Source: Candidatus Dojkabacteria bacterium
Lineage (GTDB): Bacteria > Patescibacteriota > Dojkabacteria > B142 > WJKM01
Length of the DNA stretch: 64,000 nucleotides
Direction of reading: 5' to 3'
Assembly (NCBI GenBank): GCA_041918255.1
Contig: JAYRWD010000026.1
Location: 9,977-73,976 of the forward strand
A model generated the notes under the pieces. It had not been told where the DNA came from and ran no database searches. It saw nothing but the letters and a program-made list of their open reading frames with translations. The position numbers and the translations under genes are program-made. Numbering within the stretch: the first letter of the stretch is position 1; each line of letters starts with the position of its first letter. Shown here in pieces: positions 28,515 through 45,623 of the stretch.

Positions 28515-30632
28515 GTGATTATTATTCGATCCGTTATGTTTCAAAAGAGATTGATAAAGAAAATATTAAAGGTGTGTTGTGTGCTTTTCGTATTAACAGG
28601 GTTTTTTATTGGCATGGGTCCTGTCCGCGGGGAAGGTCAAACAAGGGAATTCTGTGAGAAGGTTAGCGTGGTTGTTAGTACGGATAATGTGGATGAGGAG
28701 CAGAGTGTTATTGAAGTAGATTCAAATTTCATTCCAATTAAGCCTTATAAATTTAAGATACAAGTTAATCCGGATGCGTTTGTTGGGTGGAGTGATGCTG
28801 ATATGGAGATACGGATCGAGACAGATGCTATTTCAAGCTGGAATGACCCAGAACCAAATGATCCAAGTTTTATAATTAATACATATACAGCGAATGCTTT
28901 GTATGCAGAATTTAGTAGCAGATCAATTGAGGAGCTGGGAATGGGGCCATTTGCGTATATGTTAATGGAAAAGGGAACTAAAAAGGAATTTAAAATGAAA
29001 CGCAATAATAATGAAGAATTAGCCGATTGTGGCAAGATTATTGACGTCGTTCCATCTGATTATGTATCTAATAAGTGTAGTGATAGAAATCTTACCGCAG
29101 GTGCTTGGAAAGTTCCAGGATATTTCCAATGTAACTATAATAATGAAGGTTGGGATGTAAACACGTTTTCCACCTGTGATGCACAACAAGTTCGGCCCAC
29201 TGACGAGCTGTGTAGCGCATTGTTTAATGATAAGCTTACCGACGATAATACAGTATTCTGTTCAAAGTGTAAGACTGAAGCGGATTTACCAGGGTATGGT
29301 ACTACTCATCTTTATGGGGAATTGTGCGAACTTGGAGAGGGAAAGTGCGGGTATGATACTGGTTTAGTATGCCGAACTGTTGGATTGCAGAATTTATGTG
29401 TAAATAGTGATAAGCTTTGGGTTCGTGAAGATTGTATAGTTGGGGCAGATGAGTGTGTCGAAAAGGACAATGGGGGTTACACGGTCAAGTGTATTCAAAC
29501 GCAGCCATATACTTCTGTACCTGCTAATCCTTTGCAGCTCGCACAGATTATTGATCCGCCAGCAAGTAATAAATATTATGGAGTTGGGGTTATAGGTTCT
29601 ATGGGAGAATGTAAGTCACTGCAATATTTGGACAAAGTAGGCTGTGACACAGATCCCTACTGCCAAGGAAAAGTTGACGATGGTAATCCAGCAATAGTTG
29701 CATATAACTATGAGCTTGGAAAATGTATAAACAAAACTTATTGTGACTTTGGTTATTCATACGAAGAGTTTCCTAACGAAGAAGATGAAAACGTTCGGGG
29801 GACAGATGGACAAATTAGCATTGGATTAACCAAGGAAACCAAAGATCGGGGATATTCTGGGATTAGTGCAACATTATCTGGATTAGCCGGAAAAGAGATA
29901 AGCAAAGAGGCGGTGGGAAGTTTGAAATTTGAAAATATCCCATATGGTGAGGGTATCAAATATACTCTTAAGGTTAGTATCATTCCCGCTTCGCGGGGCG
30001 CAGGGATGATGGGCGGTTTACTTATTCATTCAAGTGCGCAAGCACCAGTAGTGTGTACCAAAACTAAGAGCATTGAGATGTTAGAAAAATTTAAAATAAT
30101 TGATCTTGAAGTCACAATAGACAAGGATGGAAAATGTACGTTAACGGTTGCCGAAGATTCTAGTTCAATTTCTCCCTCTTCATATGTTTCCAATATTGGC
30201 ATTGAAGGATGTGGTGACAGCCTAAGTTGCATCAATTGTTTAATTAGAAAAGACGCAACAAACTTCGAAAAGTTTACAAGTCTTGAAGAAGCCGTTGCCG
30301 CCAATGCAGGAGGCGAGGATAAAATTTATAGGACCAATAATATTTATACAGCGCTAGGGTGTATCGATCCCAGTGATCAGGGGATTATAGTAAGATTGTT
30401 ACAGATTTCTCTAGGTATAGTAGGAGGAATTACGGGGGCGCGTTTCGGACAGGCGGCTTACAAGTTTGGCAAAGGCGAGCCTGAGTCTACCAAGGAAGCA
30501 TGGGAAATAATCTGGTCCGCAATTTTGAGCCTTCTACTTATTGCATTCTCGGTAGTAGGTTTTCGATTTATCGGAATTAATCTATTCAAATTACTTACTC
30601 CCGGAACAGTAGAGATACCTTCTCCAAAGTAA
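28515..30632 (+). CDS. Large secreted Cys-rich protein that ends in a pilin-like (TrbC/VirB2-topology) paired-TM hairpin.
   Basis: A 705-aa product. An N-terminal signal anchor is followed by about 560 aa with more than 40 Cys, and the C-terminus is IVRLLQISLGIVGGITGARFGQAAY-[loop]-WEIIWSAILSLLLIAFSVVGFRFIGINLF. This has the same topology as the five genes that follow. Confidence 0.6.
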   Translation: MIIIRSVMFQKRLIKKILKVCCVLFVLTGFFIGMGPVRGEGQTREFCEKVSVVVSTDNVDEEQSVIEVDSNFIPIKPYKFKIQVNPDAFVGWSDADMEIRIETDAISSWNDPEPNDPSFIINTYTANALYAEFSSRSIEELGMGPFAYMLMEKGTKKEFKMKRNNNEELADCGKIIDVVPSDYVSNKCSDRNLTAGAWKVPGYFQCNYNNEGWDVNTFSTCDAQQVRPTDELCSALFNDKLTDDNTVFCSKCKTEADLPGYGTTHLYGELCELGEGKCGYDTGLVCRTVGLQNLCVNSDKLWVREDCIVGADECVEKDNGGYTVKCIQTQPYTSVPANPLQLAQIIDPPASNKYYGVGVIGSMGECKSLQYLDKVGCDTDPYCQGKVDDGNPAIVAYNYELGKCINKTYCDFGYSYEEFPNEEDENVRGTDGQISIGLTKETKDRGYSGISATLSGLAGKEISKEAVGSLKFENIPYGEGIKYTLKVSIIPASRGAGMMGGLLIHSSAQAPVVCTKTKSIEMLEKFKIIDLEVTIDKDGKCTLTVAEDSSSISPSSYVSNIGIEGCGDSLSCINCLIRKDATNFEKFTSLEEAVAANAGGEDKIYRTNNIYTALGCIDPSDQGIIVRLLQISLGIVGGITGARFGQAAYKFGKGEPESTKEAWEIIWSAILSLLLIAFSVVGFRFIGINLFKLLTPGTVEIPSPK

Positions 30633-30688
30633 CTGAGCAAAAGAAGGTAAAACAAGGTAAAATATTCATATAAAATATTAGAACTAGA

Positions 30689-31063
30689 GTGATGAGAGTG
30701 GTGCGGACCATAAAATCAAAACTTCTTGCGACAGCTGTTTTCGTCAGCACTTTTTCAATATTTGCTTTGAGGGTCGTACACGCCGTAGCTATTCCAGACC
30801 CAATAGGAAAAGATTTTCTAACCATCTTCAACGATGTCACCGGTCTCATTAAACCAATAACTGTACTTACCTTCCTAGCGACCTTTTTTTATGGTGGATA
30901 TACATGGATGACAGCAGGGGATAGCGAAGATGCGGTAAAAAAGGCCGGGAAAATTCTCACCACGTCAATTATCGGACTGATAATTATATTCCTAGCCCCA
31001 TCCTTAGCCGAACTTGTTGCAAGTTTGCTTGGAGTGAGGCAAATTATTGAATTTCCTAATTAA
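30689..31063 (+). CDS. TrbC/VirB2-like pilin-topology protein (signal peptide plus two TM helices), minimal version.
   Basis: A 124-aa product. It has a roughly 34-aa signal peptide ending AVA, helix 1 ITVLTFLATFFYGGYTWM, a short charged loop, and helix 2 ILTTSIIGLIIIFLAPSLAELVASLL. Confidence 0.6.
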   Translation: MMRVVRTIKSKLLATAVFVSTFSIFALRVVHAVAIPDPIGKDFLTIFNDVTGLIKPITVLTFLATFFYGGYTWMTAGDSEDAVKKAGKILTTSIIGLIIIFLAPSLAELVASLLGVRQIIEFPN

Positions 31064-31065
31064 CG

Positions 31066-31896
31066 ATGATGGATACAAATTTTCTTCGTAGTGCTAAAAC
31101 AATCTTAATTATTTTATGTGTTACTGGAACTGTCTACTTTGTTTCGCAGACCGGATATGTAAAGGCGGAGGGGGAAATATTAGATATCAAATGTGCTAGG
31201 GAAAGGATCCTAAATCCCACCGGTTGTTATGCAAGTGGCGAGAAAGATAGTCCAACAAGCAGTTTTAGTTTTTCGGGTACCGAGGAGAAAGGAGAGTTGG
31301 GGGGTTGTAAGGATCAAGAAAACAGCGAAAAATTTATGTGCGAATTAAATAAATTTTGCACTGGCTCTGGAGAGGAAAAAGATCAAACCTTTGGAAAAGA
31401 CGGATTAAATTACTCGGGGACCACTTTGCGATTCACTCAGGCCAACCTACCCAAGCTGATTAGAATGGCGCTCACAATCATTTTTTCCCTATTAGGCATC
31501 ACTGCACTCTTTATGGCTATTTACGGAATAATGAAATGGTTCTATGCCGTTCGCGGAGGTGGGGACGTTTCAAAGATGACAACATACTTTATGAATGGAA
31601 TATGGGGAGTATTTTTCGCGGCAGGAAGCATAGGCTTTACATATATGTTGTTTTGGGTTTTCGGGTATCGGGATAATATATTTGATTTCGGTGCTGTCTT
31701 TGATGAATTATATAGCGTAGATTGCGAAGCGGTTGTTAGCGAAAACGGAGATCCGGTAGACCCTACGCAAGTGCAAGCATTATGTGATAAATATAACCTT
31801 TCGTGTATGTATGTTCCGGGCAAATGTGTAGAGAGAGTGGCAGATTTCGATAGCTGTACTTCTAAGCCAAAAACAAGCAATATGAGGGTTACATAA
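31066..31896 (+). CDS. Pilin-topology paralog with a Cys-containing N-ectodomain and a Cys-rich C-tail.
   Basis: A 276-aa product with a signal peptide. Its TM hairpin is MALTIIFSLLGITALFMAIYGI / IWGVFFAAGSIGFTYMLFWVF. A Cys-rich tail follows. Confidence 0.55.
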   Translation: MMDTNFLRSAKTILIILCVTGTVYFVSQTGYVKAEGEILDIKCARERILNPTGCYASGEKDSPTSSFSFSGTEEKGELGGCKDQENSEKFMCELNKFCTGSGEEKDQTFGKDGLNYSGTTLRFTQANLPKLIRMALTIIFSLLGITALFMAIYGIMKWFYAVRGGGDVSKMTTYFMNGIWGVFFAAGSIGFTYMLFWVFGYRDNIFDFGAVFDELYSVDCEAVVSENGDPVDPTQVQALCDKYNLSCMYVPGKCVERVADFDSCTSKPKTSNMRVT

Positions 31897-31935
31897 GATA
31901 AGCCTATCCAGAACGTCTATAAATGTTACGCCAAT

Positions 31936-32688
31936 ATGGGTATGAAAAATAAAATATATTTATCATTCGCAACGCTCCTCACACTGTTTTCCTTTGCTAC
32001 GAGGGTAGCAGCTCAGGTTAATATTGATGTCCCAGACGGAAAAACCAAAATTGAGATAGATTATTTCAAACCATCGGCCTTTACAGATTTGATGAAGTTT
32101 GGGGCTTTAGGATTTGTGGGATATATCGCCATTTTCCTTGTTGGCTTTATGTTTATATATATCACCGTCCAAATAGCCATTTCCGCGGGCAAAATTATTC
32201 AAAGCCAAGGAGATTCTGGCAAACTCGAGGAAGGAGTTTCCGAAATCCAAAAATTTATGCGAGGGGTTTTGATAGCAATGTTATTTTTATTGGCATTTGT
32301 GGCGGTTGGAATCTTTATGGGAAGCGGAAATATTATGAAGTGGCCTTCTAAACTCGGACAATGTGGCGGGGGCGGGGTTTTGTTTAACGCAGAATATGAC
32401 GCCTCCCTGAAGAATGAAAAGATCTATGAGAAGGAAACGCAAGTACTATGTTGTAGAAATTTTGAAAGTTTGGACTTTGGGGACGAAAATACCGTCTTGG
32501 TTTCTCCAGTAGGGGGTATTAGAGGATTTAGCAAGGATGGACCTTCAGCAGGAAATCCATTCGCTATAGTCGTGGGAACCGAAACGGACGGAGGCTGGAT
32601 GTTTATCCTACCATCTGCAACAGGAGAATCTAGAGATTTACAATCGACCCAATCTGACCAAGAGAAATATGTTTGTTCGATTTATTAA
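31936..32688 (+). CDS. Pilin-topology paralog
   Basis: A 250-aa product with a signal peptide (…ATRVAAQ). Its TM hairpin is FGALGFVGYIAIFLVGFMFIYITV / VLIAMLFLLAFVAVGIFMG. A C-tail with CGGGG and CC follows. Confidence 0.55.
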   Translation: MGMKNKIYLSFATLLTLFSFATRVAAQVNIDVPDGKTKIEIDYFKPSAFTDLMKFGALGFVGYIAIFLVGFMFIYITVQIAISAGKIIQSQGDSGKLEEGVSEIQKFMRGVLIAMLFLLAFVAVGIFMGSGNIMKWPSKLGQCGGGGVLFNAEYDASLKNEKIYEKETQVLCCRNFESLDFGDENTVLVSPVGGIRGFSKDGPSAGNPFAIVVGTETDGGWMFILPSATGESRDLQSTQSDQEKYVCSIY

Positions 32689-32721
32689 GATTGCAACCTG
32701 AGGAGTTTCTTTGTATTATAT

Positions 32722-33387
32722 TTGAGAAAGCTAAAAATAATTAATATTATTTTAAAAAATATGAAGCAATTTAAAACATTGGCAAAAGTTGGTTTGGGTT
32801 TAGCTCTATCTTTGGCATCAACATATACAGTTGTAGCCGCTCAGTGTGGAGGTTGGTTGCCAGAATTCCTACAGGGGTTTGTGTGCGAGGATCCAGTAAA
32901 CAATTTAACAAACAGGGTGAAAGTGTTTTTCGTACTAGCTTTCGGAGCAGTAATACTAATGGGAGTTGTGTATACAATTTCGGCTGCGTTGAAGTTCATG
33001 CGAAGTAAGGGTGAAAGCGGAGAGATTGAAAATAGCCAAAAAGCAGTCACGGCGATTTTCTACGGAGTTGCTTCGCTTTTTGTTGGAGTGATTGGTATGG
33101 TTGTGGTCACACTATTCTTTTCTCCCACGGTTATTTTCCCTCAGCAAATTTGTATACAAGCCCCGGATAGCTACGGCTGTTTTGCCTGTCGTAATCCTAA
33201 GAAGGGTTCAAATGTTTCTTTCGTAGATATTTGTAATGCATGTAACGATGTGTCCGAGGCACCACTAAGTGATATTAGTGGAAATGTGACGTGTGCTGAT
33301 GATGTTCCCGCGAATATCTCCGATGATGATATAGTTCTAAAGCTTGATGAGGTAAAAACGGTTGGAACGAAAAAAGTTGGGGTCTAG
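32722..33387 (+). CDS. Pilin-topology paralog
   Basis: A 221-aa product with a signal peptide (…VVAAQ) followed by CGGW...C. Its TM hairpin is VFFVLAFGAVILMGVVYTI / AIFYGVASLFVGVIGMVVVTLFF. A Cys-rich tail follows. Confidence 0.55.
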   Translation: MRKLKIINIILKNMKQFKTLAKVGLGLALSLASTYTVVAAQCGGWLPEFLQGFVCEDPVNNLTNRVKVFFVLAFGAVILMGVVYTISAALKFMRSKGESGEIENSQKAVTAIFYGVASLFVGVIGMVVVTLFFSPTVIFPQQICIQAPDSYGCFACRNPKKGSNVSFVDICNACNDVSEAPLSDISGNVTCADDVPANISDDDIVLKLDEVKTVGTKKVGV

Positions 33388-33586
33388 ATTGGAACAGGAT
33401 TATTCAAATCCGCTTTCTTCAAACTGAATAAAAATTGACTTTATGCGATACCCGAAAAAGGCAACAAATGTGTGTCACACTGAGTTCATCGAGGTGCGAC
33501 ACTATCATATTTTTACCCCTCGACGTGCTTCTGCCAGAGGCAGACAGACAGGGTGACATAATAAATGTAGTTTCGTATAAAGTCTA

Positions 33587-34540
33587 ATGAAGTATAAATT
33601 GCTTTCTTTGTTTGCCATTGCTCTGACTGTTAGCACGGTTTTTTTCACCACGCCAGGAATCGCTCTGGTTAGTGCGCAAAGTCAAGAGGAAGTAAATCCG
33701 CTTTTCGATCTCAGTTCAACCGATCCAATCTATATAAATCTCAATTACGACTGTACAAATATTAAGTGGTCGGAAGGTGCGATAGGGATTTATAGAAAAG
33801 TCTATAAGTCCGGGGACAAATATTATGAAGCCAATCCTCGAATAAACGAAATCCAGCAATATCTAAATGGCAAGCCCTATGCCGAGACCTACTTTCTTTT
33901 TGAAGGCGAAACGGGATTGAGTTTAGAAGAGAGTTCTATTAACAAAAATGATTTCAATGCCACGCCATTCAACGAAATAAAGAGGATTGCTCCCTCGCCT
34001 TTTATTATTCCTAGTGATAATCCAGAGCCTATTTTGAAAGAATACGTTGGCATGCCCCTGTGTGATGGTGCCTATTCCTTTAGTGGAAACGATTTTCTTG
34101 CTCCAAATCAAAAGATGAGAGCAAGTCTCGATAATCAGAACGAAAGTTTCGGAGAGCCAAAAAGTTTTGTCCCAGCAAATTTCGTACCCCCTGTATTGCA
34201 GCAAGCGGAAAATTACTTCGTGGAGATAATATACATTTTTTGGAGTATTATTGGACTAGCAGCAGTTGGGCAGTTATTTGTCATAGGTTTGAAAATCCTG
34301 ACATCAAGCTTTAGCCCGGAGCAAAAAGGAGCTACGTTACGCTCGGTAGCATTATGGGTGGTCGGACTGGCATTGGCCATAGTGGCTATTCCACTTTTGC
34401 AATTTATTTTTAGAATTTTGGACATACAAGACACTAGATGCTTCAAATATACTGAGAATAATGAATTAGTTTACGATCTGACCGTTCCGGGTTTCACGTT
34501 CTTCTTTAATGATACATGTACGTCCGAGGAGAGCTTGTAG
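33587..34540 (+). CDS. Pilin-topology paralog with a roughly 170-aa ectodomain.
   Basis: A 317-aa product with a signal peptide (…LVSAQSQ). Its C-terminal hairpin is FVEIIYIFWSIIGLAAVGQLFVIGL / LRSVALWVVGLALAIVAIPLLQFIF. Confidence 0.55.
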   Translation: MKYKLLSLFAIALTVSTVFFTTPGIALVSAQSQEEVNPLFDLSSTDPIYINLNYDCTNIKWSEGAIGIYRKVYKSGDKYYEANPRINEIQQYLNGKPYAETYFLFEGETGLSLEESSINKNDFNATPFNEIKRIAPSPFIIPSDNPEPILKEYVGMPLCDGAYSFSGNDFLAPNQKMRASLDNQNESFGEPKSFVPANFVPPVLQQAENYFVEIIYIFWSIIGLAAVGQLFVIGLKILTSSFSPEQKGATLRSVALWVVGLALAIVAIPLLQFIFRILDIQDTRCFKYTENNELVYDLTVPGFTFFFNDTCTSEESL

Positions 34541-34608: not shown

Positions 34609-35769
34609 ATGTTCAAATTCATACATACAGCCGATCTTCACCTTGGGGCGAAGGCAGGATGGCTAGGTACTCGAGCAACAAGCCATAGAAAATTATTATT
34701 AGATACCTTTGCCCAAATTTGTGACGAGACGCGAAATAGGGGGGCAAACGCATTAGTTATAGCAGGGGATCTTTTTGATACCCCATATCCAAGTACTAAT
34801 ACCATAAATTATGTGCAATCTCGTTTAGAGGCATTAGCAAGGGGGGGCACAATGGTTTTAATTGTGGCAGGCAATCACGATCGCTATATTGATTCTTCGG
34901 TATATTCCAAACTGAAATTCTCAAATCCTCTCATCCATGTTTTCTCTCCAGAAAAAGTTGAGGTAATTGAGTCAACGAATTTTGCGGTTAGGTTTTTTTC
35001 GCAGAGTATAGCTCAAAGATTCTCAACATCCTCAACCCTTGGGCGACTCATAGATGCTCGCAAGAATGGTAGGATGGACGGCGGAGGTTTTACAGATATT
35101 GCGATTGTTCACGGATCAGTAGAATTAGGATCGAATACGACCAACCACGGGATATCAAAGGAGGAAATTACAAATTCTGGTTTCGCATATATAGCACTTG
35201 GCGATTGGCACGGATTATTGGAAGTATCAAACAAAGCAACAAAAGCTTGGTATCCAGGCTCACCTCAACCATTGGCTTTTGATCAGAAAATGTTTGGTCA
35301 TGTTCTGGAAATATCGGTCGAGCCCGGTGTAAATGAAAGAGTAGAAGTTATGCCAATTAAGATTTCTGAGTTATTTACACAGGAAGTTACATTTGATTGT
35401 TCAAAACAGGATAACCACCAAGGAGGCGGACAATCTTTATATGAACGTATAGACAGGACTATTACCGGACTATCAAATAAGAATTTGTTACTTGAAATGA
35501 AATTAAGTGGCATCATAAAGCCAGAAATGCCAATTAATTTAGGGGAGATATTGGAGGCCGATACGGATAAATTTTATTTATTACGAATCATAAATCTAAC
35601 GAAGATAGGTTTAACACAGGAAGAGATAGAAGCTATACCCGAGACTACGGTTTCTGGAAGACTAATCAGAATTGCTAAACACAGACTTGAGATCGAAAAA
35701 GACGAGAATGTACGCAAAATTATTGAGCAAGCCTTAGTGGAGGGATTACAAAAATTAAGCGAATTGTAG
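34609..35769 (+). CDS. SbcD/Mre11-family metallophosphoesterase, YhaO(SbcF)-like
   Basis: Calcineurin-like motifs IHTADLHLG, AGDLFD and AGNHDR. It is 386 aa and lies directly upstream of the SMC-like ATPase. Confidence 0.75.
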   Translation: MFKFIHTADLHLGAKAGWLGTRATSHRKLLLDTFAQICDETRNRGANALVIAGDLFDTPYPSTNTINYVQSRLEALARGGTMVLIVAGNHDRYIDSSVYSKLKFSNPLIHVFSPEKVEVIESTNFAVRFFSQSIAQRFSTSSTLGRLIDARKNGRMDGGGFTDIAIVHGSVELGSNTTNHGISKEEITNSGFAYIALGDWHGLLEVSNKATKAWYPGSPQPLAFDQKMFGHVLEISVEPGVNERVEVMPIKISELFTQEVTFDCSKQDNHQGGGQSLYERIDRTITGLSNKNLLLEMKLSGIIKPEMPINLGEILEADTDKFYLLRIINLTKIGLTQEEIEAIPETTVSGRLIRIAKHRLEIEKDENVRKIIEQALVEGLQKLSEL

Positions 35770-35855
35770 AGGATTTTTAGCGCGCCCGAAAACGCAAGCA
35801 TAACGTAACGATTATAATTTTTTATACTTTTTTGCAACACGTTGAAAAATAAATA

Positions 35856-38137: not shown

Positions 38138-39883
38138 TTGCCCGTGATTTTGAAAAAGATCAAGTATCAAAGGTTTACGATTTCAATTCTCCTTTTGAGT
38201 ATTTTTTTTGCGATTTCGACCATTCCAACTAATGCTCGCACCATTTCTGAAATTGAGTCGGAAATAAAACAGAAACAACAAGAACTTACTGAAGTTAATA
38301 CGACAATTGCCGAACTAGAAGAGAATATTATTAAGCAAAAAGCTGAGATGGAAAATGTTGTCGGAAGGCGTAATACCCTGAGGGCAGAATTAGCATTGAA
38401 CGCAAACCAAAAAAGTCTGATAGAGGAAGAGCTGCGCGACTTAAACAAGAACGAGATCTTAACAAAATTAGAGCAAGAAAAGAGAATTCTGACGCAGGAC
38501 CGATTAGTTTCTGAGGCATATGTGACATGGAGACAAATGAATACTTTTCGGATTTTGCTTCAGACCAATTCGGAAGATATTGTCAAAATTTCGACATATC
38601 AGAACTCCGTTTCTGAGCGCGAACAGAAAAATATTGAGCAACTCGAAACAGAGTTAGAAGCAATACAAAAAGAGTTGAACGAAAATGAAATTAAAAAGGC
38701 ACAATATCAGGCCGAAATTGATAAAATTGACGCGCAAGTCAAGGTAACAGAAAGATTATTGGCAGAGCTAGATTCAAAAATTTTAGCTAATCAAAACGAC
38801 GTTGCGAATTATCGAGGTAGATTAGGATCTATTCAATCCGCGATCGACGAATTGACGGCGGAGCAGAAAAGAATATTAGAGGCCGAATCTGTATTTTTGG
38901 GTAAGGTCAGCAATGGGGGCACAAAGACTATTAAACAAGGACAAATCTATTTTCAGGGTATTGGAAGGGAGGCCTATCAGGGACATGGTGTAGGCATGTC
39001 TCAGTTCGGAGCTTTGGGTGCGGCACTGGCCGGATGGGATGCGGAGAAAATAGTTGAATTTTATTATCCTGGTGCGGAGGTTGAGACGTATGGAAAAGGC
39101 AAAAAAATAAGTGTAGAAGGATATGGAAGTATGGATATTGAAGATTATGTAGCGGGAGCTGGTGAGGTACCCGACCATTCTTGTGAAGAATTAGATTTAA
39201 AATTTGACTCAAAGAATGTGTGGCAATGTTGGCCAGAAGAAGCCATAAAAGCTCAGGCAATAGCTTTCCGAACATACGGGATTCATAGCACAATCAGCGG
39301 AGGTACCATATGTACTTCGGCTAAATGTCAGGTATATAAAGGTGGGACGAATAAAAAATGGGCGGCCGAGGCCACAGAGGGTAGAGTTATCATGTATGAT
39401 AATGAACCAATAGCAGCTTTTTATAGCTCTGACAATCATAATGGATGGGGGAATGGAAATAATGATACTGTGTGGAGCAGTATGTCCGGTGTAGGAGAAC
39501 CAAAAAAATATTTGCGTGCAGTAAATGACAAAAAGATTGCTTTTCATTATACCTATACGGATTGGGGATGGAGAACAAACGGATATTCAATTTCAGATGT
39601 TGATAAAATGTTAACTTGGAGTGTGAATTCAGAAAAATCTACGAGTGGTTACAAAGAATTTTTAAAAACAATAAAAACAAAAGTAGGGACTCTAAAGGGC
39701 ATGGATTTTGAGAGGGATCCCTCTGGAAGGGTGAAAAGAGTCAAATTGATTGGGGAAAAGGGAGGTGAGTATATAGCTGGATGGCTTTTCAAATCTGCTT
39801 GGAATATATGGGTAGGGAATGAAATGCCCAGTGGGGAAAAGGATTTCATTTATAGCCTGACATATTACATGCGAGTTGGATAA
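38138..39883 (+). CDS. Secreted coiled-coil protein with a C-terminal SpoIID/LytB-like peptidoglycan hydrolase domain.
   Basis: A signal peptide, then about 230 aa of heptad-rich coiled coil, then the SpoIID-type motifs GHGVGMSQFGALGAA and AFYSSDNHNGWGN. Confidence 0.6.
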   Translation: MPVILKKIKYQRFTISILLLSIFFAISTIPTNARTISEIESEIKQKQQELTEVNTTIAELEENIIKQKAEMENVVGRRNTLRAELALNANQKSLIEEELRDLNKNEILTKLEQEKRILTQDRLVSEAYVTWRQMNTFRILLQTNSEDIVKISTYQNSVSEREQKNIEQLETELEAIQKELNENEIKKAQYQAEIDKIDAQVKVTERLLAELDSKILANQNDVANYRGRLGSIQSAIDELTAEQKRILEAESVFLGKVSNGGTKTIKQGQIYFQGIGREAYQGHGVGMSQFGALGAALAGWDAEKIVEFYYPGAEVETYGKGKKISVEGYGSMDIEDYVAGAGEVPDHSCEELDLKFDSKNVWQCWPEEAIKAQAIAFRTYGIHSTISGGTICTSAKCQVYKGGTNKKWAAEATEGRVIMYDNEPIAAFYSSDNHNGWGNGNNDTVWSSMSGVGEPKKYLRAVNDKKIAFHYTYTDWGWRTNGYSISDVDKMLTWSVNSEKSTSGYKEFLKTIKTKVGTLKGMDFERDPSGRVKRVKLIGEKGGEYIAGWLFKSAWNIWVGNEMPSGEKDFIYSLTYYMRVG

Positions 39884-39950: not shown

Positions 39951-42155
39951 ATGCAAATTGATAGAAATAGAATAAAAACTCAGTATTTCGTTGGGGCTTC
40001 TCGTAAGACTCAGTGGTCAAGCGTGTATATATTCTCACCCCATATACCCGCCGTTTATGAAAAGATGGGCGATCTGTTTGCCATTATTACGTTATCGAGC
40101 CCCCCTTCATTTGATTCTAATACCGCAGGAAATCTCTTGATAGACGCACTGCAAGAGGCATATTTTGATGGCCCAAATGAGAATCCATTTGAAGGAATTG
40201 ATTATGCAGTGAAGTCGGCAAAGAAACGTTTAGAGGATCTAATTGAGAGTGATGAAATAATTTCGCAAACTGGAATCGAACTTAGTTTACTATTGGTAGT
40301 TATTCATGAAGAAAAGGCTTATTTAGCCCGCATCGGCGAAGGAGCAATTTTTGGATTCAGAGAGGGCGAAATGGTTGAATTCACTACTAGTTTGAAAGAT
40401 CCCGATGGCAAGGGACATATGAAAACTGCAAGTCTAAGGGTTAGTCCTGGAGATCGATTTGCGATTCTGACTAAAGAAATTCAGCAAAATATTTCAAAAG
40501 ATGAAATTGAAGCAAGTCTCGTGAAGTTTAAGCTAGAGAATATTGAAAATAAAAAGTTTTCAGATGAGGCCTTGAGCGCGATTTTACTTATTGAGGTCGA
40601 GAAAGAGGAGAGGGCAGATATACTAGAGATCAAAGAGTCAATTCAGAATGACAGTGTCAAAGATGAAGATTTCAAAGGGATGTATAGAGAATTTGAAACA
40701 CGAACTTTGAAGGAAAGGGGGGATGAAGAAGCCGAATATAAATTTTTGTCCGCATCAACTTATCATTCTACACCAATATTTATGAGGCTCAGAAGGCAAG
40801 TCAAAGTAGTAATGAATTCTAGATCGTTGGCTAAGGTTATTATATATGGGCGTAATGTCCTCGGGGTACTATTCGGACTATTGGGATCTTTACATCGAAC
40901 CATAAAGTCAAAAGTACTAAAGATACCTCCTAAAGAAATGCTGTATATAAATGATTTGAACAAAGGTGGTAATAAAAGACCAGCAATATTTTTCTTTGTT
41001 TTATCAATTTTATTGATTTACTTTATTATTACAGGAGTTTCGAATTCAAGAGAACGCGCAAAGCTTGCATTTGAGGCTGAGCAAACGATCGTAACATCTG
41101 AAGCTGAACTGACTGAGCTAGAAAATAAAGTAGCCTCTATCATTCTTACCTACGGTAACGAAATAGATAGGGATGCAGCTTTTCGAAAAGTAGACGAGAT
41201 TAAATTAAAATTAGAAGCACTGAAGGTAGAAGAAGTATCTGAGAAACAAAATGCAATTCTAGATAGATTGGAAGAAGTGAATCGTAAGCTTCGTAGGATT
41301 ATTCAGGTCAGAGAAGTTAAAGTGGTCAAAGATTTTGCAGTAATAGAGGGTAGCCAAATAGCTGATATTGATATCGGAGCAGAACAAATTTTTGTGGCCG
41401 ACGGTGGTGATGGCAAAATTTTAGCATTTGATAGGGCAGGTGGGAGTATGAAACAATTAGCCACCGGCTTAAAAGGTCTAATCTCTATAGCATATTCAAA
41501 TCTTGGGCATTTAGCATTTATTGACGGTGATCCTCAAAGAGTTTTAGGTCTTATCAGACTGTCTGATAATATATTGACTCGGGTACCAGGTATCGATGCA
41601 ATTAGGCTCGGCAGGGTAAATGATATCGATGCTTACAAAGTTGGGGAGAACGATAATCGCATTTATGCTGTTCGACCAGAGTCTTCACAAGTTATTCAAA
41701 TGCGTCAATCGGCAGGAGAGTATGTTTTGCCCGAAATTAGACTTGAGAATAAAGATTTGGGGAAAATTTCAGATCTTGAGGTAAGTGACGGGAGGATCTA
41801 CATTCTGTCTCAGGACAAAGGAATTAAGGCTTTTTTTGGAAACGGGGAGGTAGCTTTGAAGCTGTACGGTCTTATGCAACCAGAATTATGGAATTCGGCA
41901 AATAATATATATGTGGATTCAAAATATATATATTTAAGCAATGATTCTATGAAGAGGATTGCGGTTTTCTCAAAATTTAGACCATCGGATGAAGGAGCGG
42001 TGGATTTTATCGCACAGTATGATTTAACCGGATTGCCTCAGAGCGGTAAACTCGGCGAATTGGTTGCCAGTCAACAACAGAGAACTATATATGTCGTACT
42101 CGGAAGTAAGATAGTGAAACTTGATATGTCAGCTATGGAGGAATTCACATACTAG
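39951..42155 (+). CDS. Hypothetical 734-aa single-pass membrane protein: N-terminal cytoplasmic domain, coiled coil, and a C-terminal repeat (beta-propeller-like) domain.
   Basis: A TM helix (PAIFFFVLSILLIYFIITGV) lies mid-protein. The N-domain is faintly PP2C-like (ARIGEGAIFGF), but the DGHGG motif is absent. The C-terminal 300 aa are rich in repeated G/D-containing strands. Confidence 0.4.
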   Translation: MQIDRNRIKTQYFVGASRKTQWSSVYIFSPHIPAVYEKMGDLFAIITLSSPPSFDSNTAGNLLIDALQEAYFDGPNENPFEGIDYAVKSAKKRLEDLIESDEIISQTGIELSLLLVVIHEEKAYLARIGEGAIFGFREGEMVEFTTSLKDPDGKGHMKTASLRVSPGDRFAILTKEIQQNISKDEIEASLVKFKLENIENKKFSDEALSAILLIEVEKEERADILEIKESIQNDSVKDEDFKGMYREFETRTLKERGDEEAEYKFLSASTYHSTPIFMRLRRQVKVVMNSRSLAKVIIYGRNVLGVLFGLLGSLHRTIKSKVLKIPPKEMLYINDLNKGGNKRPAIFFFVLSILLIYFIITGVSNSRERAKLAFEAEQTIVTSEAELTELENKVASIILTYGNEIDRDAAFRKVDEIKLKLEALKVEEVSEKQNAILDRLEEVNRKLRRIIQVREVKVVKDFAVIEGSQIADIDIGAEQIFVADGGDGKILAFDRAGGSMKQLATGLKGLISIAYSNLGHLAFIDGDPQRVLGLIRLSDNILTRVPGIDAIRLGRVNDIDAYKVGENDNRIYAVRPESSQVIQMRQSAGEYVLPEIRLENKDLGKISDLEVSDGRIYILSQDKGIKAFFGNGEVALKLYGLMQPELWNSANNIYVDSKYIYLSNDSMKRIAVFSKFRPSDEGAVDFIAQYDLTGLPQSGKLGELVASQQQRTIYVVLGSKIVKLDMSAMEEFTY

Positions 42156-42179: not shown

Positions 42180-42635
42180 ATGGAAAGTAAGCAATACGCA
42201 AAAAATAAAGCCGCGTTTCATGATTATAGAATTATTGAGGAATTTGAAGTAGGTCTTGTTTTACAGGGATGGGAGGTTAAATCTATCCGGGTAGGGGCTG
42301 TCAGTCTTAAAGAAAGTTACATTGCCCCGGTAGGAAAAGAATTATTGATTTATGGAATGAATATTGCAAAGTGGAAGTATACACTTAGGGTAGGGGAACA
42401 GATGGAATTGCGACCGCGCAAATTACTAGTAAATAGAAAGGAAATAGAGCATATTGTCTTTGAGCAAAAAAGAAATGGTGTAACAATCATCCCGCTATCA
42501 ATATACGATCGACGTGGACATATAAAATTGAAAATAGCACTGGGGAAGGGATTACGTAAATATGATAAAAGGGAAGTCGAAAAATCCCGAGAAATCATGA
42601 AAGGGAGTAGGGAAAAACAGGCGGAAAGATGGTAG
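42180..42635 (+). CDS. smpB: SsrA-binding protein SmpB
   Basis: NKAAFHDYRIIEEFEVGLVLQGWEVKSIR, with a basic C-terminal tail. It is 151 aa. Confidence 0.9.
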   Translation: MESKQYAKNKAAFHDYRIIEEFEVGLVLQGWEVKSIRVGAVSLKESYIAPVGKELLIYGMNIAKWKYTLRVGEQMELRPRKLLVNRKEIEHIVFEQKRNGVTIIPLSIYDRRGHIKLKIALGKGLRKYDKREVEKSREIMKGSREKQAERW

Positions 42636-43151: not shown

Positions 43152-45623
43152 ATGATTCAAGCTGTCCGCATATTAGCACAAATGGATTTTTTCTCCTTAG
43201 TTATGGACCCTGCGTCATTCGTAGATGAAGCAAGCAATGACCCTTCGTTTCTGATAATGGTTTGCCTTATGGCAATATTGGGTCTTGTAATTTTGATTCT
43301 AGCGTATAAGCTATTTATGAAGGGAGTGATGCATGCTTCTATGGAAAAAAAGTCATTAAGCTCAGTTCTCTTTGAAGTTAGACTTCCGCATACGAATGAG
43401 GTCGAGATACAATCAGCCGATCAAATGCTAACGGGGTTTCTTGGCATTGAAAGAGAACTGAAGGGGCTACAAAAATGGTTTGGTTCGAAATATTATATTA
43501 GTTTTGAAATTGTAGCGTTGCCTGAGACTATAAGATTTTTTGTAAATGTCCCAAAGAAATTAGCGACACTTGTAGAAAAACAAATAAATGGTACTTATCC
43601 TGAGGGTGAAGTAATAAGAACGGATGAATATAATATATTTGGACCTGGGCAGAAGGTAGAATTCTGTTCATTGAAGTTAGCTGAGGATCCGTATAAGCCC
43701 ATCCGGACATATGAAGAGCTTTCGCAAGATGGTTTAAGCAGCATTACCTCCGTTATGAATAAAATGGGTCCTGGTGATGCTATGGCGTTACAGATTGTTA
43801 TTACTCCCTCATCAGGAGAGTGGCGCAAAGATGGTCGAAAATACGTAAATAAAATACGAGAGAATAATTCTGATCCGGAAAAATCAAAGATAGAGGTAGA
43901 AGACGAAATACTTGCTGCAATTGAAAAGAAGGCAGAAAAGCCTGGATTTGAATCAGTTGTGAGGATTGTAAGTGTTTCTACGTTAGGAGAAATAGCTAAA
44001 TCAAATTTGGATAACATGGTTTACGCGTTTGATCAGTTTGCTAATCAAAATGGAAATAGGTTTAAAAAAGTTTCATACAAGAAAAGAAAGGAACAAAGGG
44101 AATTCATGAAGTCCTTTTTGTACAGATTCCCCTCGAAAGCGATGATTTTAAACTCCTCTGAATTAGCTACTATTTTTCACTATCCAAATAGCAAAATTAC
44201 TACTCCGCACATACATTGGCTTACCTCGAAACGTGCTCCAGCAAGTGGAGAAGTCTTATCTCATTTCGAAAATGCAGGGGTATACCTAGGAGTGAATGAA
44301 TATAGGGGCACGAAAAGAAAGATATTCATGCGCTATGACGATAGGCGACGACATTTTTATTATGTTGGTAAAACAGGTTCTGGTAAATCTGTAATGTTGC
44401 AGCATATGGCCTATCAGGATATTTTAAACGGACAGGGATTAGCATTCCTGGATCCTCACGGGGACGCCGTTGAATGGCTTATGGATCGAATACCGGCCGA
44501 ACGTGTCGAGGACATTATTTATTTCAACCCTGCGGATACGGATCGTCCAATAGGTATGAATATCATGGAATGGTATACCGAACATGATAAACACATTATT
44601 GTGAATGGTTTCTTGGGTCTTCTTAATAAATTATTTGATCCTTACAATCAAGGTATTACTGGACCACGTTTCGAGCAGGCCGTAAGGAATGCGATGTTGA
44701 CTGTTATGGCAAAAAAAGGCACTAGCTTGGCTGAAGTGATGACACTTTTACAAAATGACAAGATAGCAGAGAAATACTTTCCATATTTAAACGATGATAT
44801 TGTAAAACGCTATTGGACAGAACAAATAGCCCATACCCAGGAATTTCACAAATCGGAAATTTTAGGATATATAACCTCTAAGTTTGACAGATTTATCACA
44901 AATAAATTGATGCGAAATATTATTGCTCAAAGCAAATCTGGCTTTGATTTCCGTACAGTTATGGATGAAGGCAAGGTTTTATTAATTAACTTATCCAAGG
45001 GATTAATCGGGGAAGAAAACTCACAATTCCTAGGGCTATTATTGATACCCAAAATGTTGCAAGCAGCGATGAGTAGGGCGAATATTGAAGCTGGATCAAG
45101 GCGGGATTTTTATCTATATGTAGACGAGTTCCAGAATTTTGCGACGCCTGATTTTGCTCAAATTCTTTCGGAGGCTCGAAAATACAGGCTTAACCTAATT
45201 GTCGCTAACCAATACATCGCCCAAATGACGGATGAGATCCGTGATGCTGTTTTCGGTAATGCAGGGTCTATAGGTAGTTTCAAAGTGGGAGTGAATGATG
45301 CGCAGTACTTGGCGAATGAATTTGAGCCAGTATTTAATCAAAACGACTTAATCAATTTGGAAAATTTGAATATGTATATCAAGTTACTTGTAAAAGGTGA
45401 ATATCCTCCTCCATTTTCGTTAAAATTAGATACGGATTTGGTCTTCAAAACACCACCGAATAAAGAAATTGGTCAGCTTGTTAGGGAACTATCGCGACTG
45501 AAGTATGGGAAAGACGCAAAGCTGGTCGATGCCGAGATAAAGGCAAGAGAACAAGAAGATGGACCAGGCAATATTGTATCACAACCACCGCCTCCGGCGT
45601 ATAAGCCACCGCTGAGTAGCTAA
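43152..45623 (+). CDS. VirD4/TraG/TraD-family type IV coupling-protein-like P-loop ATPase
   Basis: An N-terminal TM helix. Walker A YYVGKTGSGKS is followed by LDPHGD, which resembles the T4CP DPKGE motif. Walker B is YVDEFQNFA, with GNAGSIGSFKVG beyond it. The product is 823 aa. Confidence 0.55.
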   Translation: MIQAVRILAQMDFFSLVMDPASFVDEASNDPSFLIMVCLMAILGLVILILAYKLFMKGVMHASMEKKSLSSVLFEVRLPHTNEVEIQSADQMLTGFLGIERELKGLQKWFGSKYYISFEIVALPETIRFFVNVPKKLATLVEKQINGTYPEGEVIRTDEYNIFGPGQKVEFCSLKLAEDPYKPIRTYEELSQDGLSSITSVMNKMGPGDAMALQIVITPSSGEWRKDGRKYVNKIRENNSDPEKSKIEVEDEILAAIEKKAEKPGFESVVRIVSVSTLGEIAKSNLDNMVYAFDQFANQNGNRFKKVSYKKRKEQREFMKSFLYRFPSKAMILNSSELATIFHYPNSKITTPHIHWLTSKRAPASGEVLSHFENAGVYLGVNEYRGTKRKIFMRYDDRRRHFYYVGKTGSGKSVMLQHMAYQDILNGQGLAFLDPHGDAVEWLMDRIPAERVEDIIYFNPADTDRPIGMNIMEWYTEHDKHIIVNGFLGLLNKLFDPYNQGITGPRFEQAVRNAMLTVMAKKGTSLAEVMTLLQNDKIAEKYFPYLNDDIVKRYWTEQIAHTQEFHKSEILGYITSKFDRFITNKLMRNIIAQSKSGFDFRTVMDEGKVLLINLSKGLIGEENSQFLGLLLIPKMLQAAMSRANIEAGSRRDFYLYVDEFQNFATPDFAQILSEARKYRLNLIVANQYIAQMTDEIRDAVFGNAGSIGSFKVGVNDAQYLANEFEPVFNQNDLINLENLNMYIKLLVKGEYPPPFSLKLDTDLVFKTPPNKEIGQLVRELSRLKYGKDAKLVDAEIKAREQEDGPGNIVSQPPPPAYKPPLSS

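Follow-up and report, generated by a model that had tools for sequence, protein, structure and literature searches.

The gene described here, ccSpoIID, lies in a 64-kb window (the whole stretch of DNA that was analyzed) from an ultra-small CPR bacterium of the Dojkabacteria, between an array of genes for VirB2-like secreted membrane proteins and genes for a conserved protein Y, SmpB and a VirD4/TraD-like ATPase (Table 1). Its ORF opens with a TTG codon; the NCBI version of the protein (P0001) starts at the 5th codon, giving 577 aa. The N-terminus, MPVILKKIKYQRFTISILLLSIFFAISTIPTNA followed by RT after the predicted cut, has the make-up of a signal peptide, with a basic n-region, a hydrophobic core of 17 aa and the cleavage site T-N-A. 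Inspection of this segment revealed no lipobox cysteine, and a pattern of V/T-x-A before and R/K-T/S after the cut is kept across the family alignment; export via the Sec pathway is predicted. The protein scores 115.4 bits against the TIGR02669 SpoIID_LytB profile (cutoff 83.3) and 45.4 bits against PF08486 (cutoff 23), the latter being matched by 40 of 40 family members. E values of its homologs go as low as 1e-159, and therefore the family match is no chance event. An AF2 model with a pLDDT of 83.8 places helices at residues 36-73, 77-141, 148-229 and 241-254.

Table 1. Coordinates of ccSpoIID, of its parts and of the neighboring genes in the window
Feature	Position	Strand	Extent	Remarks
Six VirB2-like (T4SS_pilin domain) secreted membrane proteins	28515..34540	+		Upstream array; PF18895 matches
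SbcD-like nuclease gene	34609-35769	+		Between pilin array and ccSpoIID
SbcC-like nuclease gene	35856-37967	+		Between pilin array and ccSpoIID
ccSpoIID gene	38138..39883	+	581 aa, stop codon included in coordinates	Exported coiled coil plus permuted SpoIID/LytB domain
Sec-type signal peptide	38138..38236	+	aa 1-33	Predicted cleavage between TNA and R; read from sequence
Antiparallel coiled-coil hairpin	38243..38824	+	aa 36-229	AF2, coiled-coil HMMs, EnvC profile match
Hairpin-tip motif	38519..38617	+	aa 128-160	Y128, W131, R/K132, D147, K150, Y154; candidate partner-docking site
Linker helix	38858..38899	+	aa 241-254	From hairpin to catalytic domain; conservation and AF2 helicity
Permuted segment	38921..39094	+	aa 262-319	Beta-strand, GHGVGMSQFGA, FYYPG; equals canonical SpoIID C-terminal ~60 aa
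GHGVGMSQFGA motif	38981-39013	+	aa 282-292	
Main body of SpoIID/LytB domain	39095..39880	+	aa 320-581	Equals canonical N-terminal plus central part
E343 codon	39164..39166	+		Predicted catalytic glutamate; GEVP equals SEMP/SEVP motif of SpoIID
Dojkabacteria-specific insertion	39173..39229	+	aa 346-364	C349 and C364 at its ends; between catalytic Glu and WPEEAIKAQ
Y	39951..42155	+	734 aa	Conserved, downstream of ccSpoIID
SmpB	42180..42635	+		Always the last gene of the string from ccSpoIID to Y
VirD4/TraD-like (T4CP-like) ATPase	43152..45623	+	823 aa	Best PDB matches TrwB, DotL

In the AF2 model the coiled coil folds back on itself, with an ascending helix (residues 36-141, kinked at 74-76), a turn (142-147) and a descending helix (148-229), the arms of 82-106 residues each corresponding to a length of roughly 12-15 nm. 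This stretch matches the SMC/Rad50 coiled-coil HMMs, and the top PDB match of its profile is the Vibrio cholerae EnvC of the FtsEX-EnvC complex (E 3.7e-8), with profile positions 11-225 colinear with EnvC 39-252 over the whole module of about 215 positions, tip motif included. In a control with the reversed profile EnvC received 1.5e-3 and the best match 5e-5. The EnvC match carries a high compositional bias. The top Foldseek match of the model is also EnvC (chain 8tzl_E), and the weak matches include the RipA N-terminal domain and SteB-RipA. The coiled coils of the Dojkabacteria and Microgenomates proteins are homologous, with a probability of 95% in hhalign, and the Pfam CC_PcsB profile scores 28.7 (P0130) and 25.1 bits on the hairpin tip of Microgenomates proteins, with a gathering cutoff (GA) of 27. 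At E<=0.01 it matched neither ccSpoIID nor any of 40 Dojkabacteria members, in which generic coiled-coil families only were recovered; since CC_PcsB misses these members, the link to PcsB rests on the Microgenomates homologs and the hhalign comparison. As judged from these profile comparisons, the coiled coil is a helical hairpin of the EnvC/PcsB/CwlO type, a likeness that goes beyond composition. Conservation along the hairpin is highest at its tip (Y128..W131..Y154), with Y128 invariant in 40 sequences and nearly so in 51 sequences from two CPR classes, and the tip motif aligned with the EnvC tip 'YYL..QYYQHLAKSRAQAIEAL'. Residues L239, E242, Q243 and E250 of the linker region are also nearly invariant, and by analogy to the restraining arm of EnvC the helix formed by residues 241-254 is a candidate restraining or autoinhibitory element. 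In EnvC, PcsB, CwlO and RipC the coiled coil binds a partner in the membrane and regulates the enzyme, rather than being a passive spacer, which argues against the stalk of fixed length that had been proposed to position the enzyme relative to the membrane.

In canonical SpoIID/LytB domains the segment with the catalytic glutamate comes first and GHGVGMSQ last, whereas in ccSpoIID this order is reversed, with the GHGVGMSQ segment preceding the PF08486 region (aa 364-420). The permuted segment aligns to residues 284-321 of 4rwr and to positions 278-337 of 338 of TIGR02870, and BLAST matches to tandem-duplicated canonical proteins span the junction (P0102x2, 327-653, E 2e-13). Furthermore, when un-permuted, the ccSpoIID sequence aligns with canonical SpoIID/LytB proteins colinearly and from end to end. 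On the evidence of these alignments, the domain is circularly permuted and complete. Since the order is reversed and the fold content is complete, it is a topological variant that still lies within the SpoIID superfamily and has the three-dimensional fold of SpoIID. The Foldseek matches obtained with either ccSpoIID model did not include SpoIID, and the score of 47.2 bits against TIGR02870, the sporulation equivalog, is far below its cutoff of 234.75.

All 40 Dojkabacteria sequences have E343, as do all of 51 sequences that include Microgenomates ones, and the residue aligns with the SEMP glutamate of canonical proteins, i.e. with E101, the catalytic residue of Clostridioides difficile SpoIID (PMC6221140). 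G282, H283, G284, G286, S288 and Q289 of the GHGVGMSQ motif are likewise invariant. The insertion that follows the catalytic glutamate is missing from canonical, actinobacterial and Microgenomates forms. With E343 and all family motifs in place, ccSpoIID is expected to be an active lytic transglycosylase that cleaves the glycan strands of peptidoglycan in the cell's own wall. SpoIID requires glycan denuded by an amidase (PMC6221140), and ccSpoIID may by analogy prefer peptide-stripped strands. An earlier note, made from this DNA alone, had recognized that a signal peptide and a long coiled coil precede a SpoIID/LytB domain, in agreement with the ORF, the modelled helices and both family profiles, and its description of the arrangement as EnvC-like is borne out by the profile match and its reversed control. 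It had also held that absence of the catalytic residues would speak against an enzyme; the glutamate is present throughout the family. It made no mention of circular permutation.

At least 66 species of Dojkabacteria carry a member of the family, which is also large in Microgenomates and comprises 85 clusters at 50% identity (E<=1e-30). Confinement to the Dojkabacteria was considered and rejected on finding the Microgenomates members, in which a degenerate GIPHRVGMSQ replaces GHGVGMSQ. Comparison of gene contexts across six metagenome loci and 66 GTDB species loci revealed a usual string that opens with ccSpoIID and continues with X (bPH_2), DUF5657, Y and SmpB. X is present in 48 of 57 species loci, Y in 38 of 50 (by tblastn) and SmpB in 41 of 50, as well as in all three of the Microgenomates loci scored for it. 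A pilin array lies at most 10 kb upstream in 33 of 46 Dojkabacteria species loci, and a T4CP (VirD4)-like ATPase downstream in 36 of 44. Among the other 13 of the 46 loci, with no pilin array inside 10 kb, are those of a clade in which SbcCD alone lies upstream and those of a subclade (L046, L052, L061 and L062) whose surroundings are unrelated. In 4/4 Microgenomates loci a divergently transcribed pilin array is adjacent, and two of these loci (L073 and L074) encode PrgI (VirB3-like) about 10 kb further on. String and pilins have thus remained adjacent in two CPR classes, in spite of an inversion.

In the window itself, an iterative pilin-domain HMM picks up all six ORFs of the array (705, 124, 276, 250, 221 and 317 aa). 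SbcC is found in 20 of 53 species loci, which marks SbcCD as a facultative insertion. Y has a weak PP2C-like N-terminal domain (PP2C_2) and one TM helix at about aa 343-365, as well as a coiled coil, and its C-terminus resembles a beta-propeller. It is related to the Y of L002 (E 1e-25), and the Microgenomates Y shows a weak NHL match; a homolog search with Y as query returned no matches. X and DUF5657 are absent from the string in the window's own subclade. A fusion of X, DUF5657 and Y was rejected as an account of the 734-aa protein, which is Y alone, with no similarity to X. Homologs of the 823-aa ATPase carry DUF8128 and DUF87 in precomputed Pfam assignments, and a DivIC-like gene lies 9 kb downstream of ccSpoIID. 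A promoter and terminator scan from 28 to 47.6 kb gave counts equal to the shuffled expectation. No VirB4 was found in the 64-kb window, and no amidase gene was seen among its ORFs of at least 100 aa or among the tabulated neighbors of the ccSpoIID genes in other loci. The proposal in the earlier note that the enzyme attends a trans-envelope machine gains from the T4SS-type pilins and VirD4-like ATPase conserved alongside, and loses from the lack of VirB4 in the window and from the pilin-less loci; taken as a whole, its interpretation stands in the domain make-up, the likeness to EnvC and the pilin/ATPase context, but not in the stalk of fixed distance.

In classical T4SSs the opening of the wall is the job of VirB1. 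We suggest, with a probability of roughly 45%, that ccSpoIID is a lytic transglycosylase of EnvC/PcsB/CwlO-like design that is gated by a partner and serves a pilin/T4SS-like surface apparatus. This role appears the likeliest because the string is kept beside the VirB2-like array, with the VirD4-like ATPase nearby in Dojkabacteria. Going by known systems, a membrane partner would grip the tip of the hairpin, while the linker helix or the hairpin would keep the enzyme inactive until a conformational change of the partner, resulting in a controlled local opening of the wall for the apparatus. That partner could be a protein from the same gene string, namely Y in the window, alone or with FtsX; both the autoinhibition of ccSpoIID and its binding to a partner are proposed here by analogy. 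A survey of CPR T4SSs found VirB1 homologs to be mostly not associated with virB4, with no consistent VirB1 near it, and suggests that other glycosidases may fill the VirB1 role (PMC12102498).

Several observations point away from a role in a pilin/T4SS apparatus. In addition to the missing VirB4 and the pilin-less loci, the string includes the housekeeping genes SmpB and SbcCD and is situated near oriC, where inertia may preserve gene order. The coiled coil is of a type known to bind FtsX, which is suggestive of division rather than secretion, and we know of no such coiled coil in T4SS hydrolases. Moreover, two members of the string, X and DUF5657, are missing in the very subclade to which the window belongs. 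A more specific version of the apparatus reading, which we regard as rather unlikely, is that ccSpoIID, X, DUF5657 and Y constitute a CPR-specific, FtsEX-independent hydrolase-control module for the VirB2-like pilin/T4SS apparatus, i.e. the 'missing VirB1' of Patescibacteria, with the permutation letting the coiled coil gate the active site directly.

A close rival, to which we accord a substantial though lesser chance, is that ccSpoIID is an FtsEX-dependent growth or division autolysin, equivalent to PcsB, CwlO, RipC and EnvC, and that its pilin neighborhood reflects conserved gene order only. Under this scenario the SpoIID domain replaces the usual CHAP, NlpC/P60 or LytM domain on an EnvC/PcsB-type module, which in characterized systems binds the extracellular domain of FtsX. 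The near-universal presence of ccSpoIID in small genomes (66 species loci; 85 clusters), the 13 of 46 loci without nearby pilins and the DivIC-like gene downstream would all suit such a role. Neither FtsE nor FtsX was found in the window, in 72 further loci, or in the gene tables of three additional Microgenomates loci; FtsE was searched for in the window and the 72 loci by tblastn with the E. coli protein as query. An ATPase in L045, the sole match to the FtsE query, proved to be of the ABC-2 type and not FtsE. Although this lack of a nearby ftsEX might be held against the division reading, pcsB, cwlO and envC usually lie apart from ftsEX, and it is therefore no evidence against it. In favor of an FtsEX-dependent enzyme, FtsEX has been reported in another Patescibacterium (PMC11809585). 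However, the VirB2-like array is still adjacent in both CPR classes although an inversion separates them, and inertia by itself is a poor explanation for this.

An offensive function, in which the episymbiont would employ the enzyme, along with the pilin/T4SS-like apparatus, to get through the host cell's peptidoglycan instead of remodeling its own wall, is improbable. Hydrolases acting on the cell's own wall are typified by an EnvC/PcsB-type regulatory coiled coil, the invariance of E343 and the motifs across two classes is more in keeping with one constant substrate than with a variety of hosts, and no toxin-type delivery domain or immunity gene was seen nearby. In favor of an offensive function are the adjacency of a secreted enzyme to an apparatus thought to mediate the interaction of CPR bacteria with their hosts (PMC12102498), and a precedent in Southlakia, where, as cited in that survey, peptidase and lysozyme homologs beside virB4 are essential for epibiotic growth. 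Least probable of all is a mainly non-catalytic activator or scaffold for a separate amidase, with the protein's own glycan cleavage being dispensable: the SpoIID/LytB family does include amidase enhancers, EnvC is an activator, and there are precedents in LytB for LytC, SpoIID for SpoIIP and EnvC for AmiA/B, as well as the requirement of SpoIID for denuded glycan and the degenerate motif of the Microgenomates relatives, but the catalytic glutamate and all substrate-groove motifs are invariant, and the search for an amidase gene described above found none.

Bacterial division depends centrally on regulated wall hydrolases of the EnvC/PcsB/CwlO plan, which, to our knowledge, have so far been seen with LytM, CHAP or NlpC/P60 modules. 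The ccSpoIID family places the same control module on a SpoIID domain predicted to cut glycan strands, and indicates that the SpoIID fold tolerates circular permutation, as it does in Actinomycetota too. Were it controlled by FtsEX, ccSpoIID would be the first lytic transglycosylase known to us among effectors of the FtsEX type. Literature searches on circular permutation of SpoIID, SpoIID in CPR bacteria and PcsB in Patescibacteria returned nothing relevant, and in the literature searched the combination of such a coiled coil with a permuted SpoIID domain is undescribed. PF08486, PF18901, PF01668 and PF03703 are not listed in the supplements of the CPR T4SS survey (PMC12102498). The T4SS-like apparatus and VirB2-like arrays of CPR bacteria have been reported to be essential for epibiotic growth. 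A conserved, exported, predicted lytic transglycosylase that two large CPR classes encode beside pilin arrays is thus a concrete candidate for the VirB1 role, and one that is open to biochemistry without culturing the organisms.

Among known systems, VirB1, PrgK, TraG of pIP501 and CD419 are wall-cleaving enzymes of T4SSs; ccSpoIID, predicted to be wall-cleaving, is likewise encoded beside T4SS-type genes (VirB2-like pilins, a VirD4-like ATPase and, in Microgenomates, PrgI within about 10 kb), though with no VirB4 nearby in the window, and the chemistry of VirB1, lytic transglycosylation, is the same as that predicted for ccSpoIID. These enzymes adopt the SLT/GH23, CHAP or NlpC/P60 folds and are without a coiled-coil module, in contrast to ccSpoIID, which has one and in which only the unrelated SpoIID fold was detected. 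The SpoIID proteins of Bacillus subtilis, Bacillus anthracis and C. difficile, with the structures 4RWR (B. anthracis) and 5I1T/5TXU (C. difficile), show the canonical order and an N-terminal membrane anchor, whereas ccSpoIID is permuted, has the coiled coil in place of the anchor and bears an extra Cys-bracketed insertion after the catalytic glutamate. Unlike these sporulation proteins, it also has no SpoIIP or SpoIIM partner nearby, neither being found in the 64-kb window, and we know of no spore formation in CPR bacteria. Closest in domain order are permuted SpoIID/LytB proteins of Actinomycetota (for example the cluster of Jatrophihabitans sp. WP_409452782.1; P0063, P0070, P0076 and P0081), in which the signal peptide is directly followed by GHGVGMSQ and the catalytic Glu segment lies further on. 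These lack the coiled coil, have a beta-rich domain of ~130-150 aa that separates the two segments, and carry C-terminal extensions such as LGFP repeats.

In overall architecture ccSpoIID is akin to EnvC of E. coli and V. cholerae, an exported protein in which a long antiparallel hairpin leads via a linker helix to a peptidoglycan-enzyme domain at the C-terminus. EnvC acts in diderms, with FtsEX, and in the FtsEX-EnvC-AmiA/B system its degenerate LytM domain activates amidases, whereas the SpoIID-type domain of ccSpoIID has its catalytic glutamate intact. The monoderm counterparts of this plan are PcsB of Streptococcus pneumoniae, CwlO of B. subtilis and RipC and RipA of mycobacteria and corynebacteria, which combine a signal peptide, a coiled coil and an active hydrolase under the control of a membrane partner (FtsEX, or SteAB in the case of RipA). 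Their CHAP or NlpC/P60 modules cut peptides, in contrast to the glycan-strand cleavage predicted for ccSpoIID. With a SpoIID/LytB module, and not LytM, CHAP or NlpC/P60, mounted on an EnvC/PcsB-type hairpin, ccSpoIID thus follows the same family plan in a new combination of modules.

The gene at the centre of this analysis, ccSpoIID, encodes a 581-aa protein with a TTG start, the start in the NCBI record being the fifth codon, which gives 577 aa (P0001, 100% identical). Its N-terminus, MPVILKKIKYQRFTISILLLSIFFAISTIPTNA followed by RT across a T-N-A cleavage site, reads from sequence as a Sec signal peptide without a lipobox, a pattern kept across the family alignment. In an AlphaFold2 model built from 40 homologues (mean pLDDT 83.8), residues 36-73, 77-141, 148-229 and 241-254 are helical and a compact, confident domain runs from about residue 270 on, with GHGVGMSQFGA at residues 282-292. 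The protein scores 115.4 bits against the NCBIfam model TIGR02669 (SpoIID_LytB; cutoff 83.3) and 45.4 bits against Pfam SpoIID (cutoff 23), and its 47 bits against the sporulation equivalog TIGR02870 are far under the cutoff of 235. Thus, the ORF, signal peptide, helices, motif and HMM scores bear out the earlier note, which had described a SpoIID/LytB domain fused to a long secreted coiled coil. Databases annotate the protein only as 'SpoIID/LytB domain-containing protein', and our literature search, as far as the literature is searchable, found no protein of this type.

ccSpoIID is an exported protein whose SpoIID/LytB domain is complete but circularly permuted and keeps its catalytic glutamate. 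Its GHGVGMSQ segment (residues 282-319) aligns with residues 284-321 of Bacillus anthracis SpoIID, the end of that protein, and residues 366-434 align with SpoIID 85-174, yet stand C-terminal to the GHGVGMSQ segment in ccSpoIID. When the domain was compared by BLAST with tandem-duplicated canonical SpoIID/LytB proteins, single alignments spanned the duplication junction (for instance, domain residues 33-293 to P0102x2 327-653, E 2e-13; a second to P0107x2 287-511, E 4e-16). Placing residues 262-319 after 320-581 gives an end-to-end alignment with canonical proteins, running from Y-V-A-G-x-G-E-V-P with the (S/G)E(M/V)P motif, through WPEEAIKAQ-x-A-x-RTY, CQVY-GG, F/Y-S-S-(D/x)-GG-T, PYLR-V-D and the SGRV strand, to a last G-x-G-GHGVGMSQ...YY-G. 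The predicted catalytic residue E343, counterpart of the catalytic E101 of Clostridioides difficile SpoIID (PMC6221140), is invariant in 40 Dojkabacteria sequences and also in 51 sequences with Microgenomates included. Of the four C. difficile zinc ligands, two are matched (C392 to C140 and C397 to C146), these counterparts being missing in several members of the family alignment, and a Dojkabacteria-specific insertion after the catalytic glutamate is bracketed by C349 and C364. Foldseek did not recover SpoIID from either the full model or a domain-only model (pLDDT 90.7).

The permuted order is also seen without any coiled coil in the high-GC proteins P0063, P0070, P0076 and P0081, and the P0098 cluster, likewise permuted and high-GC, contains a protein from Jatrophihabitans (Actinomycetota); hence the permutation is older, or more widely spread, than the ccSpoIID family. 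Other such coil-less proteins of high-GC bacteria are P0097 and P0098, and one protein has LGFP repeats. Our literature search found no paper mentioning a circular permutation of SpoIID, and it seems to be undescribed.

By the source names of the records, the window belongs to a chromosome of Candidatus Dojkabacteria (WS6, CPR/Patescibacteria). Scanning a single genome for each GTDB species recovered 66 ccSpoIID loci, labelled Dojkabacteria, WS6, 'Patescibacteria group' or 'uncultured Candidatus Saccharibacteria', several as bacterium or uncultured bacterium only, with Doudnabacteria (L029) as the sole exception. Many GTDB-representative records with a Dojkabacteria-type locus (L007, L015, L020, L023, L026, L030 and others) are titled 'uncultured Candidatus Saccharibacteria bacterium', which is probably a generic submission name and no true taxonomic placement. 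When 1.84 billion cluster representatives were searched exhaustively with HMMER, 85 matched at E<=1e-30, nearly all of 570-610 aa and colinear over residues ~15-578, and 405 at E<=1e-10. A distant relative, P0062, belongs to a large Microgenomates family (Daviesbacteria and others) of 550-600-aa proteins that share the plan of a coiled coil joined to a permuted SpoIID domain and carry the motif in the degenerate form GIPHRVGMSQ.

In these genomes ccSpoIID is the conserved head of a string of genes, X-DUF5657-Y-SmpB, beside arrays of VirB2-like pilin genes. Gene order is constant in six metagenomic loci whose ccSpoIID proteins are 32-65% identical: a VirB2-like T4SS_pilin array, SbcD-SbcC (some loci), ccSpoIID, X (a 200-300-aa membrane protein), DUF5657, Y (710-810 aa), SmpB, a small ORF and an ~800-aa ATPase of the DUF8128/DUF87/TraG type. 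Among species-representative loci with enough flank, a pilin array lies at most 10 kb upstream of ccSpoIID in 33 of 46, and X is found in 48 of 57, SmpB in 41 of 50 and the ATPase, which resembles type IV coupling proteins, in 36 of 44. Departures from this pattern are a clade with SbcCD alone upstream (L011, L014, L038, L039, L045), a divergent subclade in unrelated context (L046, L052, L061, L062), and L040 and L060, where the permuted domain (47% and 38% identity over residues ~262-578) follows other N-terminal regions without detectable similarity to the ccSpoIID coiled coil, in unrelated genomic contexts. The window is without X and DUF5657, so that Y comes straight after ccSpoIID, a loss common to its closest relatives (L001, L007, L008). 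An HMM iterated on the fetched loci finds the pilin domain in all six ORFs of its array, and its 823-aa ATPase is similar to TrwB and DotL, both coupling proteins. Searches of the ORFs of at least 100 aa in the 64 kb turned up no VirB4, FtsE/FtsX or amidase.

Coordinates of features in the window and in homologous loci
Feature	Source	Coordinates	Strand	Remark
dnaN	window	20435-21562	-	
dnaA	window	21770-23164	-	
Pilin array	window	28515-34540	+	
SbcD and SbcC nuclease genes	window	34609-37967	+	between pilin array and ccSpoIID
ccSpoIID	window	38138-39883	+	
Y	window	39951-42155	+	
VirD4/TrwB-like ATPase	window	43152-45623	+	
SLH-domain protein	window	45902-47347	+	
tRNA-Ile, anticodon TAT	window	47348-47421	-	begins one base past the stop codon of the SLH-domain protein
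2345-aa ORF	window	54672-61709	+	
X/DUF5657 pair	L002-L006, L009 and others; L073-L075	~+1.7 to +2.6 kb from ccSpoIID start		
Y, split	L001	11749-13914		
HicB/HicA pair	L075	9440-9913		
Permuted SpoIID protein	L040	9344-10942		
Permuted SpoIID protein	L060	6223-8073		

A survey of CPR T4SSs found VirB2-like arrays of 2-11 genes to be common, T4SS genes often near dnaA and VirD4 homologues mostly far from virB4; VirB1 homologues were for the most part not linked to virB4 either, and other glycosidases were suggested as possible substitutes for VirB1. SpoIID is not mentioned in it, nor is PF08486 in its supplements (PMC12102498). GC skew changes sign near 22 kb in the window, at dnaN and dnaA, so the window spans the replication origin and the region lies close to oriC. 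The pilin/ccSpoIID block begins ~6 kb from dnaA, in agreement with the oriC-proximal position reported for CPR T4SS genes.

Several neighbours have features of their own. The first of the six pilin paralogues, a Cys-rich protein of 705 aa, has the pilin-type two-TM domain solely at its C-terminus and may thus be a tip or adhesin-like variant; the remaining members (124-317 aa) have variable ectodomains containing Cys. SbcD/SbcC intervenes between the array and ccSpoIID in 20 of 53 species loci (counted by SbcC) and is absent elsewhere, the conserved block tolerating a facultative insertion. The ATPase has a long N-terminal extension (DUF8128 in homologues) and is conserved 3' of SmpB in Dojkabacteria. 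In most Dojkabacteria, and in every Microgenomates locus examined, the genes straight after ccSpoIID are those for X, a membrane protein with a bacterial PH domain (bPH_2), and the small two-TM DUF5657 protein. Y looks like a transmembrane sensor or phosphatase: a weakly PP2C-like domain at the N-terminus is followed by one TM helix, a coiled coil and a C-terminal domain that is beta-propeller-like (NHL-like); in L001 it is split into ORFs of 192 and 501 aa, and a homologue search with the window protein gave no matches. Beyond this block lies a secreted 481-aa protein whose N-terminal half is acidic and rich in repeats. Its three SLH domains imply an S-layer or secondary cell wall polymer anchoring system. 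The giant 2345-aa ORF joins right-handed beta-helix repeats, a CarboxypepD_reg-like domain and, at its extreme N-terminus, a weak receiver-like (response-regulator) match under the Pfam cutoff; the combination is odd, and its start may have been called wrongly.

Of all the loci, those of Microgenomates tell most about context. On four contigs an array of 4-6 pilin genes immediately adjoins ccSpoIID on the opposite strand, and ccSpoIID is followed by X (bPH_2, PF03703), DUF5657 (PF18901), Y and SmpB. A PrgI (VirB3-like) gene lies ~10 kb past the pilins on two contigs, and in three loci no VirD4/TrwB-like ATPase is found downstream. In one Daviesbacteria genome a HicB/HicA toxin-antitoxin pair sits between the divergent pilin array and ccSpoIID. 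Inertia alone is a poor explanation for a pilin adjacency that outlasts both class-level divergence and an inversion.

The helical hairpin of ccSpoIID belongs to the EnvC/PcsB type; its tip is conserved, as is the linker helix. A coiled-coil profile (residues 30-262, 19 family members) searched against all PDB sequences ranks Vibrio cholerae EnvC first (E 3.7e-8), in one colinear stretch (profile 11-225 to EnvC 39-252) of the 'Peptidase M23' chain in the FtsE/FtsX/EnvC cryo-EM structures 8tzk and 8tzl. Because coiled coils match one another by composition, the identical search was run with every sequence reversed; its best match was 5e-5, with EnvC at 1.5e-3, so that the forward search places EnvC about three orders of magnitude ahead of the top reversed match, which does not hold for a second EnvC-like chain, 8i6o_E (6.6e-5). 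The tip motif (Y128..W131..D147..K150..Y154..I..L) aligns with the EnvC tip 'YYLTKRS..QYYQHLAKSRAQAIEAL', and the tip and the linker helix at residues 241-254 (L239, E242, Q243, E250) are nearly invariant. Foldseek with the full model gave EnvC chain 8tzl_E as a weak top match, in a list including the RipA N-terminal domain and SteB-RipA. The Pfam PcsB coiled-coil family PF24568 matches neither the window protein nor any of 40 Dojkabacteria members; it matches the tip regions of the Microgenomates proteins P0130 (28.7 bits, cutoff 27) and P0232 (25.1 bits), and hhalign aligns the Dojkabacteria and Microgenomates coiled coils tip on tip (95% probability, 190 columns).

In EnvC, PcsB, CwlO, RipC and RipA, the coiled-coil module has FtsX or SteB as its membrane partner, to which it binds, and restrains the enzyme. 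By analogy, the ccSpoIID module would dock to a membrane partner and hold the enzyme in check. We favor, at a probability of roughly 0.45, a reading in which ccSpoIID would cut the cell's own wall as a lytic transglycosylase, possibly on denuded glycan, gated through its hairpin tip by a membrane partner, in the service of a pilin/T4SS-like apparatus. The main rival, that it is an FtsEX-dependent division or growth autolysin in the Dojkabacteria/Microgenomates lineages, is a tentative but substantial alternative; it follows from the known partner of the EnvC/PcsB-type module, and FtsEX is on record in another Patescibacterium (PMC11809585). In genomes of ~1 Mb that encode few hydrolases, the T4SS-service role need not preclude the FtsEX one. 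A host-directed attack enzyme is improbable given the self-wall type of regulation, and a non-catalytic activator, against which the invariant catalytic residues speak, is marginally more so.

If it is a partner-gated enzyme serving a pilin/T4SS-like apparatus, ccSpoIID is a candidate, open to biochemical testing, for the step that opens the wall in a CPR T4SS-like system; alternatively, it would present a lytic transglycosylase as an FtsEX-type effector. In its expected workings it is like EnvC, PcsB, CwlO and RipC but lacks their defining LytM/CHAP/NlpC module, and it is a member of the SpoIID/LytB superfamily but without the canonical order of segments. It differs from sporulation SpoIID in falling outside the sporulation equivalog, and is like VirB1 solely in expected chemistry and neighbourhood. 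What is new in ccSpoIID is the combination of modules and the permuted topology, widespread in two CPR classes.
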